64,000 nt of DNA, from assembly GCF_003018235.1 (NCBI RefSeq), contig NZ_CP027437.1. The stretch is one strand, 5' to 3'. Under the pieces are notes generated by a model. That model ran no database searches. It saw only the letters and a program-made list of their open reading frames with translations, and was not told where the DNA came from. The stretch is from Escherichia coli. GTDB lineage: Bacteria > Pseudomonadota > Gammaproteobacteria > Enterobacterales > Enterobacteriaceae. How positions within the stretch are numbered: the first letter of the stretch is position 1; each line of letters begins with the position of its first letter. This document shows positions 47,314 to 57,649 of the stretch, piece after piece. A program made the translations under genes and the position numbers.

Positions 47314-47391
47314 GGGATTTTTGCACGAGAGTAGTTTAATTGAGTATGTAACTACATGATTTAAAATAATTTGTCTAATTCAACTTTTAAA

Positions 47392-47417
47392 CCGTATAAC
47401 CAAACGTATAACTAAAA
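47392..47417. repeat. Left-end copy of a 26-bp direct repeat (two CGTATAAC units); candidate Int arm-type sites or att repeat
   Basis: CCGTATAACCAAACGTATAACTAAAA matches 57494..57519 at 25 of 26 positions. Confidence 0.7.
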
Positions 47418-47620
47418 TGATTTGCTGAAAAAGTGTACAATTTAAAGACAGATTTTCCCGGGGGTTATAAAACTGCGAAAATTTCGTAGTTATCCCGATA
47501 CGGGGATCACCATATCGGGATTGGATACCTGGCTTTTTTTCCGGTTAACTCTTAATCATCTGCGTGATCATAATGATGATTCAGCCAGCGCAATTTTGCG
47601 TTATCGGGAATATCAGCAAG

Positions 47621-47902
47621 TTACCGCCGTAACCGCTCCGGCTTCTTCCAGTGGTAGGTAATTTTTTCTTTCTCCCGATACATCTCCACGCGGCGCTTGT
47701 AGGCCAGCATTTCAAGAACGCGGATCCGTATGTCGCGCATATCCACATCATTAAGCTGGATACCATCACGGCGCATCACCTCAGCAACCACACACGCATA
47801 ATTTTCGGCGGTCACGCAGTCCGGCTGCGTAGCCTGTTCGTCAGCCTGCTGGCTGATTCCGGCAACTCGGCGGATTAATCGCAGTAGTTCGGCTTCTGTC
47901 AT
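47621..47902 (-). CDS. Hypothetical protein (93 aa), last gene of the island
   Basis: ORF with a good SD (GAGGGGG, 5 nt before the ATG), preceded by repeat copy A. I recognise no family. Confidence 0.55.
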   Translation of the reverse strand: MTEAELLRLIRRVAGISQQADEQATQPDCVTAENYACVVAEVMRRDGIQLNDVDMRDIRIRVLEMLAYKRRVEMYREKEKITYHWKKPERLRR

Positions 47903-47940
47903 TGTGCCCCCTCGCGCTGGTTAAGAAAACAAGCTCAGAT

Positions 47941-48156
47941 TTTTTGTAAAGAATCTGTCACGCTAAAAGATGTCGAACAAAAAACAATCACCTTCATCAT
48001 CTTTTTTACATAAAAACAATTAAAAACAATAATTTACATACATGATGATGATGGCGATAAAATCATAAAAATGCGCTTTTTTCCGCGCCGACCCGCCCCG
48101 TGGACAGGCCCACCCCACCAGGAGGACCCGCAAAAAAGGCGGCATATTTGCCGCCC
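47941..48156 (-). repeat. Copy A of the ~215-bp island-internal direct repeat (terminator + GC-rich core + AT-rich block)
   Basis: Aligns with 50489..50701. A 26-nt block is identical (minus strand CCACGGGGCGGGTCGGCGCGGAAAAA). GGGTCCTCCTGGT, TTGTTTTTTGTTC and TTTACAAAAAA are shared blocks. It starts with the hairpin terminator GGCGGCAAATATGCCGCC-TTTTTT of the capsid gene. Confidence 0.8.
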
Positions 48157-48169
48157 TGTAAACTGTGTA

Positions 48170-56085: not shown

Positions 56086-56189
56086 GTTGATGCTCTCTTC
56101 ATGTTTGGCGGCCTTTGGGGGTAACGAGATAATGCAACTATACGACGGTTTTACATGGTTTTCATCGTTTTTGCTGGTTTTGTGTACAG

Positions 56190-57431
56190 TTATACCGCAC
56201 GGATACCCCTTTTACCACCAGCAAGGGTAACGCCCGTTGCCGCTGCCTCAACAAATTCCCCCCACCAGCGCATCAGCACAATGCGTTTTTCCAGGTAGTT
56301 ACTGCGGTTGTAGGCTCTCCTTACTTCGTTGGTGTCCACGTGGGCCAGTGCGGCCTCGATTACGTCCGGCTCGAATCCTTCCTCGTTTGCTGCTGTGCTG
56401 AATATGGCGCGTAATCCATGAGACACCAGCACGCCAGCGAACCCCATGCGCCGTAATGCTGCGTTGGCGGTCTGGCTGTTCATCGGCTGGCGTGGGTCTT
56501 TCAGGCTCGGGAAAACATGCTCGCGGTGGTGGCTGATTGGTTTCATGGCCTCCAGCACTGCCATAGCCTGACCGCAAAGCGGGATAACGTGATCACGTCG
56601 CATCTTCATACGTCCGGCTGGTATCGTCCATTGTTGCTCGTCCAGGTCGATTTCTTCCCAGCGTGCTGACGATGCCTCAACAGGACGGGTTACGGTAAGT
56701 AGCTGCCACTCAATCAGTAGTCTTGTCTGCCGTTCTGTTGCCGATACGGATAAAGCCCGCATAAGCTCCGGTAGCTGCTCGGGGCGGATTGTTGGCATAT
56801 GTTTTTTTACTGGGGTGGGGAAGGCCTTGCGCACGTTTGTAGCCGGATTGGTATCAATCATCCCGCTGTTGGCGGCGTAATCCATAACTTCATTGATGCG
56901 CTGTAAAACCCGCTTGAGCGTTTCCAGGTTGCCGCGTTCCTTGATGGGGGTGAGTATCTCCACGAACCTGCGGGCGGTGAGGGTGTCTACTGGCGTGTCA
57001 CCGATGAACGGGAATACATATTTCTCCAGCGATCTCCATATGTCTTTAATTGTGTTGGGTGCAAGATTCTGGCTGATTTTCACCTGGTACCATGCCGCTG
57101 CTACATTTTCGAACGTGTTGCCCTGTCTCCGTTCCTCTGCTTCGCGTTTTCGTCGCTCGTGTTCCTGTGGGTCGGTGCCGGAAGAAATTAACGTCCTGTA
57201 CTCGCTACGGCGTTTTCTGGCATCAGCCAAGGAAACATCATCAAGCGATCCAAAACTCAGCAATATTCTTTTTTTGTCCAATGGGCGGTAGTAGGAAAAT
57301 CGCCAGAGTTTTGATCCAGACGGTTTGACCAGGAGAAAAAGCCCTCCGCCGTCCTGTAGGGTGTACTCCTTTTCCGCTGGTCTGGCTGCTTTGATCTGCA
57401 CTGTGGTTAATGGGGTTGTTTTTCTCGCCAT
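56190..57431 (-). CDS. int: P4-type tyrosine integrase (DUF4102 N-terminal arm-binding domain)
   Basis: The N-terminus MARKTTPLTTVQIKAARPAEKEYTLQDGGGLFLLVKPSGSKLWRFSYY is the classic P4-integrase-family start. The catalytic region is ...HGLRAIFSTAANE...AALAHVDTNEVRRAYNRSNY. The ORF extends to 57449. Confidence 0.9.
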   Translation of the reverse strand: MARKTTPLTTVQIKAARPAEKEYTLQDGGGLFLLVKPSGSKLWRFSYYRPLDKKRILLSFGSLDDVSLADARKRRSEYRTLISSGTDPQEHERRKREAEERRQGNTFENVAAAWYQVKISQNLAPNTIKDIWRSLEKYVFPFIGDTPVDTLTARRFVEILTPIKERGNLETLKRVLQRINEVMDYAANSGMIDTNPATNVRKAFPTPVKKHMPTIRPEQLPELMRALSVSATERQTRLLIEWQLLTVTRPVEASSARWEEIDLDEQQWTIPAGRMKMRRDHVIPLCGQAMAVLEAMKPISHHREHVFPSLKDPRQPMNSQTANAALRRMGFAGVLVSHGLRAIFSTAANEEGFEPDVIEAALAHVDTNEVRRAYNRSNYLEKRIVLMRWWGEFVEAAATGVTLAGGKRGIRAV

Positions 57432-57464
57432 ATGTCTATGATTCCACACGAAAAAATGGGGTTT

Positions 57465-57519
57465 TAGTTATACGGCTTTAGTTATACGTCAGCCCGTATA
57501 ACTAAACGTATAACTAAAA
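57465..57519. repeat. Right-end cluster of four CGTATAAC units (two inverted, two direct), including the 26-bp copy of the left-end repeat
   Basis: TAGTTATACG occurs at 57465 and 57479. CCGTATAACTAAACGTATAACTAAAA lies at 57494-57519. Confidence 0.7.
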
Positions 57520-57570
57520 AATCCGGCTGATAGCTTATAAATCCGGTGATGTCCGGTGACTAAAAACCAT

Positions 57571-57602
57571 AAAAAAACCCGCCAATCAAGTGATTAGCGG
57601 GC
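57571..57602 (-). terminator. Rho-independent terminator downstream of proL
   Basis: The minus strand reads GCCCGC-TAATCACTTGATTG-GCGGG followed by TTTTTTT, 48 nt after the tRNA 3' end. Confidence 0.6.
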
Positions 57603-57649
57603 TTTTCGTGTCTGAAACTGTTATTTCCGGTGGTATCCGGTGGGCGATT

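Follow-up and report, generated by a model that had tools for sequence, protein, structure and literature searches.

A probable mosaic phage-inducible chromosomal island at proL of Escherichia coli, with a protease-capsid fusion gene between two predicted cos sites

An island of ~10.33 kb lies beside the tRNA-Pro(GGG) gene proL in the Escherichia coli assembly GCF_003018235.1 (contig NZ_CP027437.1). It occupies positions ~47323-57655 of the 64,000-nt stretch analysed here, which we refer to as the window; all coordinates are window positions. Nearly all island genes are on the minus strand, the sole divergent one being a YlcI/YnfO-family gene. Protein families were assigned with the Pfam, PHROGs and NCBIfam profile libraries, tRNA genes with ARAGORN and Rfam, and junctions by alignment with the empty yejO-proL site of strain MG1655. 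The gene content and the flanking sites indicate that the island is very probably a Gram-negative phage-inducible chromosomal island (PICI) that is packaged through cos and belongs to the E. coli EcCI family; it is a mosaic inserted at the 3′ end of proL. The features that delimit the island and make up its capsid cassette are listed below (open reading frames are abbreviated ORF).

47323-47331, unstranded: distal attachment (att) core GCACGAGAG (MG1655 yejO-proL comparison)
47392-47417, minus strand: two GTTATACG repeats, putative integrase arm-type sites (direct-repeat family D7, motif positions)
47920-48170, minus strand: cos1, cosQ-cosN-cosB-like, with the cosN core at 48078-48102 (homology to phage cos)
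48170-50065, minus strand: fusion of a ClpP-like prohead protease, a scaffold-linker and an HK97-fold major capsid protein, 631 aa (NF045540, 881 bits)
50056-50283, minus strand: ORF75, overlapping the start of the fusion gene and probably 64 aa from 50250 (phrog_4934, E 2.5e-48)
50470-50720, minus strand: cos2, with the cosN core at 50627-50651 (cosN identical to that of cos1 over 25 nt)
57467-57519, unstranded: four GTTATACG repeats, two per orientation, between int and the tRNA gene (repeat search)
57650-57726, minus strand: tRNA-Pro(GGG) gene proL (ARAGORN; Rfam tRNA, 54.9 bits)
57656-57664, inside the proL 3′ end: int-proximal att core GCACGAGAG (junction analysis)

The island has discrete junctions. 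Homology to the MG1655 empty site extends up to 47339 on the left and resumes from 57648 on the right, and these break points, together with the common core GCACGAGAG, therefore give the size of ~10.33 kb. The limits of 47316-57649 proposed in an earlier, sequence-only reading of this DNA are right to within a few bases. The displaced proL 3′ fragment at the far junction (47316-47335, compared with 57648-57665) lacks the 5 nt GGTCG that the empty MG1655 site has in the acceptor stem, and an exact excision would therefore yield a tRNA-Pro(GGG) gene that is damaged. Deletions of 1, 2 or 5 nt occur at the same spot in the left junctions of other proL PICIs (L001, L002 and L005), and variable damage to the displaced tRNA-Pro fragment has been reported for PICIs (PMC10111431).

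The reference PICIs assigned to ‘yejM-luxR’ in Table S1 of Fillol-Salom et al. 2018 (PMC6092414) carry the repeat TTTGTAGTTATACGTTTGGTTATACGG, and the island repeat at 47392-47417 and 57494-57519 is the same save for one base. The ‘yejM-luxR’ location corresponds to the proL site, because narP, past yejO, is a LuxR-family gene. In that table GTTATACG is listed as the ‘att core’ of these elements. The empty-site comparison places the crossover in the 3′ end of the tRNA gene, so the GTTATACG repeats look like, and probably are, integrase arm-type sites. The neighbouring autotransporter gene yejO (44629-47220) is an intact 863-aa ORF in the window; in MG1655 an insertion sequence interrupts it, and it is a pseudogene there and in SCU-111, ATCC 25922, 12867 and 11128.

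Two published islands, EcCIATCC25922 and EcCI11128, resemble the island in their proL site, GTTATACG end repeats, size of ~10 kb and possession of a capsid homologue in the Late zone. They are colinear with it from int to ORF86, and key backbone proteins are 87-95% identical. The main integrase is 92.6-94% identical to those of the proL PICIs EcCIATCC25922 (92.6%), EcCI11128 (92.8%) and MFDS1019527, and RepA is 95.1% identical to RepA of EcCI11128. A further island, EcCIED1a.1, has been grouped with EcCIATCC25922 as a reference PICI at ‘yejM-luxR’ (PMC6092414). The integration, regulation and replication zones are allelic to those of EcCI11128 and EcCIATCC25922, whereas the Late zone differs. 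That of EcCIATCC25922 encodes a lambda-E-type capsid protein of 351 aa, a head-decoration protein and a TerS-like (small terminase subunit) protein, and that of EcCI11128 a TerS-like protein together with a capsid protein of 307 aa. The Late zone of the island contains an extra integrase gene, a PerC gene and the array cos2-ORF75-fusion-cos1-ORF93, without a TerS-like gene. The whole mosaic is present in one other complete E. coli genome (SCU-111), and ~1960 of the 5426 complete genomes surveyed match parts of it.

A direct repeat of ~90 nt, at 48054-48142 and 50603-50690, brackets the capsid operon. The sequence-only reading had recognized both copies, which are indeed present, as a plain repeat; homology indicates instead that they are two cos sites. 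Read on the gene strand, both copies run ...GCGGGTCCTCCTGG...CACG GGGCGGGTCGGC GCGGAAAAA... and are identical across 25 nt. They align with the lambda cosQ-cosN junction, ...ACGGGTCCTTTCCGG...TTACG GGGCGGCGACCT CGCGGG.... The cos1 copy has 86% nucleotide identity to a stretch of Shiga toxin (Stx)-converting and related lambdoid phages, and in VT1-Sakai the matching stretch lies between Rz and the small-terminase gene, the expected position of cos. Across cosN and a further 175 nt, identity to the helper-type cos is 84% for cos1 and 73% for cos2, which is closer (85-88%) to the upstream cos of other PICIs. The cosB side is helper-like in cos1 and satellite-specific in cos2.

The phages with a matching cos are those with the best hits to the fusion protein: Stx2 phages, 1720a-02, CP-1639, VT1-Sakai and the mEp460 group. 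They encode a DUF1441 TerS, a gpA-type large terminase subunit (TerL), a lambda-B-type portal and their own protease-capsid fusion, and genomes of this helper type are 44-51 kb long. Chromosomal relatives that carry the cassette (L005, L021) have a cos on both sides, whereas terL-embedded relatives have the upstream copy only. At L021, the cspD-clpS PICI of E. coli 042, the cos sites (9906-9930 and 12445-12469) have different predicted 12-nt ends, GGGCGGGTCGGC and GGGCGGAGGGGC. A molecule cut once at each kind would carry non-complementary ends, whereas the two ends in the window are identical. We also observed a hairpin followed by a T-run ahead of cos2, and a like hairpin ahead of cos1 in the alignment.

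The fusion protein contains a CLP_protease domain at residues 43-175 and a Phage_capsid_4 domain at 333-625 (phrog_133). It matches NF045540 over its full length and above the curated cut-off of 475 bits, and the ClpP-type Ser and His motifs AASMAS and MIHAP are kept. The closest phage proteins are 51-52% identical over the full length, with no phage record above 52%, and identity to E. coli helper proteins is 52-55%. Satellite fusions are 629-643 aa long, compared with 659-664 aa in helpers, and share a conserved 20-35-aa linker deletion after the protease domain. The ratio of nonsynonymous to synonymous substitution (dN/dS) between satellite copies is 0.086-0.092. These comparisons indicate that the fusion is a diverged, selectively maintained homologue of the helper capsid protein. 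A literature search for PICI protease-capsid fusions returned nothing specific.

ORF75 lies directly upstream of the fusion gene in all eight other satellite copies (from E. coli, Kluyvera, Yersinia and Moellerella), and its family comprises 12 protein clusters, in Enterobacteriaceae only. Its identification as a ribbon-helix-helix protein is plausible from the sequence; the AlphaFold2 model has a pLDDT of 66, and no Foldseek match in the PDB fell below an E value of about 1. In EcCIATCC25922 a 68-aa ORF with a strand-helix-helix-like pattern lies directly upstream of the lambda-E-type capsid gene (L023, 5200-5406), with no obvious similarity to ORF75 by eye. A small ORF ahead of the capsid gene may be a general trait of PICI capsid modules.

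The ORF75-fusion pair occurs in 142 of the 5426 complete E. coli genomes, at ~89% nucleotide identity, and many of these strains are Shiga-toxin producers. We inspected 11 contexts of this module. In E. coli they comprise the proL PICIs of the window, SCU-111 and MFDS1019527, the cspD-clpS PICI of strain 042, and two PICIs within terL of lambdoid prophages of just the proposed helper type (L006 and L022). Elsewhere they comprise a Kluyvera PICI, a second Kluyvera PICI in the fusion gene of its helper (L011), a Yersinia PICI and a Moellerella locus. A scan of contigs from other species with the fusion protein gave four informative loci, the other matches being distant ClpP-like proteins. The ORF75-fusion-ORF93 modules of L006 and L022 are 92% identical to that of the window at the amino acid level, and the Kluyvera L011 homologue is 63% identical. 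A recognizable PICI backbone accompanies the module in 10 of the 11 contexts; the Moellerella locus has the ORF75-fusion pair alone. This distribution indicates that the module constitutes a satellite lineage.

At L011 the helper-embedded PICI splits the helper fusion gene exactly at the MMIH catalytic-His motif. The fusion in the window keeps MMMIHAP (residues ~105-112, 49740-49760). By analogy with what has been reported for the PICIs at tRNA-Ile2, the fusion gene of the island could itself be a target for helper-embedded elements.

We compared the island with the description of PICIs in PMC6092414 and with the SatelliteFinder model of PMC10085698. It has an integrase at one end and a specific att site with an empty counterpart, AlpA downstream of int, with int, alpA and the replication genes all transcribed in one direction, and its own replicase with an iteron origin directly 3′. 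The capsid-morphogenesis component, which proteobacterial PICIs often have, is supplied by the fusion, a capsid type unlike that of reference PICIs and one judged here by family rather than by SatelliteFinder profile. A TerS- or Rpp-like gene is absent, and the alternative, a helper-type cos, is represented by two sites. None of the components foreign to PICIs (tail, holin, portal, connector/adaptor) was detected, and the length of 10.3 kb falls within the range of ~8-15 kb. SatelliteFinder defines five PICI core components, capsid morphogenesis among them, and places four-component elements without TerS in Type B (PMC10085698). The island appears to hold four of the five, corresponding to this accepted type.

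Profile searches with Pfam, PHROGs and NCBIfam identified no terminase, portal, tail, lysis, sid/psu/delta or Rpp genes on the island, and helper-phage TerS, TerL, portal and tail proteins used as tblastn queries gave no match to it. The gaps that the sequence-only reading had noted (terminase, portal, tail, lysis and psu-delta-sid) are thus borne out by three hidden Markov model libraries and by tblastn, and the anatomy it described was recovered in full, each feature in its place, by profile, repeat and tRNA searches. Capsid-forming PICIs (cf-PICIs) resemble the island in having their own capsid and protease genes, but the cf-PICI gene set extends to TerS, TerL, a portal and head-tail connectors or adaptors (10.1101/2022.09.08.507074; de Sousa et al. 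2023), of which the island has none. Searches for the P4-like set (psu-delta-sid, epsilon and the alpha primase-helicase) gave no matches, and the island genes that are shared with P4, namely int, alpA and the icd-like gene, are all found in PICIs too.

Capsid genes are common in this group, being present in 21 of 29 reference Gram-negative PICIs (Mageeney et al. 2023, PMC10111431). The same study describes a ‘Late zone’ that is dynamic and made up of late genes captured from helpers, sometimes with extra integrases, as well as PICIs that bear a CLP_protease gene. The elements described there resemble the island in their four-zone layout, extra Late-zone integrases and damaged displaced tRNA-Pro fragment. 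The published CLP_protease-bearing PICIs lie at tRNA-Ile2 and lack alpA (PMC10111431), whereas the island has alpA. Helper-embedded PICIs (L006 and L022 in terL; L011 at a C:CLP_protease:110-type site) differ from the island, which is chromosomal and lies at a tRNA gene. Its integrase also belongs to a different clade, with 38% identity to the terL-targeting integrase.

A related cos-type PICI, studied experimentally, is EcCICFT073, which uses lambda and phi80 as helpers and carries two functional cos sites with identical cosN, the capsid homologue c1499 and a head-decoration gene (PMC6092414). Both elements have two cos sites, a capsid homologue and a PerC variant; in both, a unidirectional operon is under alpA control and the origin lies 3′ of the replication gene. 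Dependence on the helper terminase has been demonstrated in EcCICFT073 and would be expected for the island. EcCICFT073 has no phage-like cosB and requires RppA (144 aa), which retargets the helper TerS (PMC6092414, PMC6739421), whereas the cosB of the island is helper-like. Because of this helper-like cosB side, an Rpp- or TerS-like redirection protein would not be needed, and none is present. The two elements also differ in capsid type (lambda E/D type in EcCICFT073, a protease-capsid fusion in the island), integration site and integrase.

The Ccm protein of SaPIbov5 steers assembly to small capsids. SaPIbov5, a cos-packaged Gram-positive PICI, also combines a helper cos with a diverged HK97-fold capsid homologue (PMC6092414). 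Ccm has no sequence relationship to the fusion and comes from another host phylum, and the island homologue adds protease and linker domains.

The proposed life cycle would start with induction of an Stx/mEp460-type lambdoid helper. AlpA-driven expression would lead to excision by the P4-type integrase, and RepA would replicate the island from the iteron origin into concatemers. The helper terminase would then recognize and cut the island cos and package the DNA into particles with the helper portal and tail. Of these elements the cos homology is observed; induction, expression, excision, replication and packaging are modelled on the family. At 41.3 kb, four units of the island would be enough to fill a head of helper size, as has been described for EcCICFT073. 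The cos sites, 2.55 and 7.78 kb apart, would add intermediate unit lengths, which, speculatively, may be why two are kept. Most likely, the fusion would co-assemble with the helper capsid protein or take its place, in a way comparable to Ccm of SaPIbov5, which would give satellite-favouring, possibly smaller capsids, interference with the helper, or both.

Other explanations of the locus have been weighed against its assignment to the EcCI family of PICIs. The sequence-only reading proposed an undescribed satellite class that fits none of the described families, forms its own shell with the product of one protease-capsid gene and relies on a helper for portal, terminase and tail. The complete protease-linker-HK97-fold protein, with intact motifs and under strong purifying selection, would suit such an element, as would a satellite lineage with a conserved linker deletion, its conserved partner ORF75 and the lack of a close relative in any phage record. 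But the backbone, site, end repeats and ~93% identical integrase are those of published reference PICIs, and CLP_protease genes, additional integrases and paired cos sites are already on record for PICIs. The proposal had also assumed that classical Gram-negative PICIs have no capsid gene; capsid genes are normal and even core components in them, as both the 21 of 29 reference elements (PMC10111431) and the SatelliteFinder model attest, and the inference of a new class therefore falls, leaving it improbable. That the island is a helper-dependent satellite rather than a remnant is a part of the same reading that is upheld by the discrete junctions, the int-alpA-rep-ori backbone and the missing terminase, portal and tail genes. 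A decayed lambdoid prophage that kept its integrase, capsid gene and cos could account for the homology of the cos and capsid gene to lambdoid phage parts, and similar elements (O-island 51 / CP-933C) were once annotated as cryptic prophages. All island genes are intact, however, the int-alpA-rep-ori layout is PICI-specific and common to the reference PICIs, the profile and helper-protein tblastn searches found no terminase, portal, tail or lysis leftovers, and the module also occurs as a discrete insertion within otherwise complete prophage late operons. We consider decay of a prophage extremely unlikely. Equally hard to credit is a P4-like satellite with a P2-like helper, to which the P4-type integrase architecture, the Icd-like gene and the 57.6% identity of the second integrase to those of P2-like phages might point: psu, delta, sid and an alpha-type primase are missing, the lambda-type cos matches Stx and mEp460 phages and not P2, the capsid homologue matches lambdoid helpers, and P4-type integrase, AlpA and Icd-like genes are common in E. 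coli PICIs.

Several observations weigh against the preferred account of the island as an EcCI-family PICI. Just one of the 5426 complete genomes has >80% of the mosaic, which may be a recent recombinant. Between the 12-nt cohesive end of the island, GGGCGGGTCGGC, and that of the helpers sampled, GGGCGGGCGGGC, there are two mismatches. The putative helper is named from the sequence similarity of cos and capsid, and the window contains no helper prophage. In EcCICFT073, deletion of c1499, which encodes an unrelated capsid type, had no transfer or interference phenotype (PMC6092414). This last result, obtained equally for the decoration gene c1500, speaks for the idea that the fusion and ORF75 are captured helper late genes without a role in transfer of the island itself, acting as an interference factor that poisons helper assembly or as a dispensable back-up of use mainly to helper-embedded relatives. 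Late-gene capture, with a back-up role for helper-embedded PICIs, has been proposed (PMC10111431), and the module does occur in PICIs that interrupt the helper terL or fusion gene. A selected, satellite-specific function is instead suggested by a dN/dS of 0.09, occurrence in four genera, the linker deletion and the dedicated partner, and 52-55% identity to E. coli helper proteins is too diverged for recent capture. We regard a captured, non-essential cassette as a possibility to be taken seriously, though somewhat short of an even chance. A bolder interpretation of the PICI is that cos2-ORF75-fusion-cos1 forms a minimal satellite capsid system between classical PICIs and cf-PICIs, in which the fusion, with its shortened scaffold-like linker, and its partner ORF75 would build satellite-specific, probably smaller procapsids on the helper portal, to be filled by the helper terminase from the helper-like cos sites of the island. 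We offer it tentatively, as rather unlikely; if it were true, size redirection would be built into the capsid protein, and the two cos sites would tune the packaged length.

The locus belongs under PICI, and annotation of its repeat changes to two cos sites that point to Stx-converting or mEp460-like lambdoid helpers. It is an example of E. coli PICIs swapping Late-zone cassettes, with the capsid homologue and cos matched to the head type of a helper lineage. Novelty is confined to the Late-zone cassette, ORF75 and the protease-capsid fusion between two cos sites, which offers a tractable system for the role of PICI capsid homologues and for the reason behind two cos sites. The remaining Late-zone genes are as follows.

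47621-47902, minus strand: ORF93, the terminal PICI gene downstream of cos1 (phrog_1561, E 1e-54)
50709-50984, minus strand: PerC-family regulator (PF06069, 132 bits)
50981-51994, minus strand: extra tyrosine recombinase, 337 aa (Int_N + Phage_integrase)

The extra recombinase gene sits where related PICIs, with the order ORF86-SSB-PerC, have a single-stranded DNA-binding protein (SSB) gene. Its closest phage relatives are the integrases of P2-like phages (57.6% amino acid identity), and its DNA is found in just one other complete E. coli genome, that of SCU-111. PerC variants are known accessory genes of some E. coli PICIs (PMC6092414). ORF93 is 87% identical to the terminal gene of EcCIATCC25922 and has matches in ~1400 E. 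coli genomes; its family comprises >880 protein clusters, none of which bears a name. The AlphaFold2 model of ORF93 has a pLDDT of 67, with nothing better than E about 1 in a Foldseek search against the PDB, and sequence searches against the PDB detected no Rpp or TerS homology for ORF93 or ORF75. A PADLOC search of ten island proteins gave no defence-system match. An Rfam scan for C4/isrK-type RNAs, which are known in some PICIs, returned tRNA only; a sub-threshold match to an Rfam miRNA family was rejected as an artefact of the origin repeats. Promoter and terminator consensus matches were not in excess over shuffled controls.

The integration, regulation and replication genes, reading leftward from proL, are as follows.

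56190-57449, minus strand: main P4-type integrase (Arm-DNA-bind_3, Phage_int_M and Phage_integrase domains)
55852-56085, minus strand: ORF77, small and conserved, located between int and alpA (homology to PICI counterparts)
55478-55684, minus strand: AlpA-family regulator (PF05930)
54776-55000, plus strand: YlcI/YnfO-family gene (NF041551, 64.5 bits)
54412-54660, minus strand: Icd-like protein (NF033153, 60 bits; phrog_6196, E 4e-37)
54138-54419, minus strand: orphan ORF, 93 aa (hypothetical in the SCU-111 annotation)
53825-54121, minus strand: DUF4222 protein, RgdR family (PF13973)
52428-53828, minus strand: RepA-family helicase / replication initiator (AAA_25, E 5e-42)
52238-52429, unstranded: iteron-type origin, directly 3′ of the rep stop codon (repeat families D2, I1 and I7)
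51966-52226, minus strand: ORF86, conserved among PICIs and lying downstream of the origin (phrog_1231, E 7e-48)

Five small ORFs had been put forward as unknown genes. Four of these, ORF93, ORF86, ORF77 and the DUF4222 gene, are instead conserved PICI backbone genes; the fifth, at 54138-54419, is indeed an orphan, with no match in Pfam, PHROG, NCBIfam or PADLOC and absent by tblastn from the five related E. coli islands used for the backbone comparison. ORF77 has no family match in Pfam, PHROGs, NCBIfam or PADLOC, and is 70% identical to its counterparts in EcCIATCC25922 and EcCI11128 and 88% to that in MFDS1019527. ORF86 is 88.0% and 88.5% identical to the EcCIATCC25922 and EcCI11128 proteins, respectively, and AlpA 76% and 68%.

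The YlcI/YnfO-family gene occupies an equal position in EcCIATCC25922, EcCI11128 and EcCIIHE3034. The annotations of SCU-111 and of other PICIs include another short ORF on the plus strand, downstream of this gene. A listed 353-aa ORF on the minus strand (54412-55473) spans the divergent regulatory region, and homology backs only its C-terminal 67-82 aa, the Icd-like protein; the remainder is almost certainly non-coding. The annotated Icd-like homologue in SCU-111 has 67 aa, so the start codon is likely near 54615.

The DUF4222 protein is identified by homology as the product of an RgdR-family gene, which is carried by all E. coli PICIs. RgdR, encoded by c1493 in CFT073, has 99 aa with RGD at residues 20-22 (PMC3378721). 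In the island protein KGD replaces RGD at these residues, as judged from PICI homologues aligned by eye.

The iterons of the origin are 24-nt units that contain CCTCACTTTT and are spaced 83-85 nt apart, with additional inverted copies. A location 3′ of the replication gene is the expected position of a PICI origin (PMC6092414). The N-terminal 125 aa of RepA (53463-53828) are 67-76% identical to the N-termini of proteins annotated as ‘DNA primase family’ in three other PICIs (L006, L022 and L023). This similarity suggests that otherwise unrelated PICI replicases share a common, swappable N-terminal domain fused to different modules.

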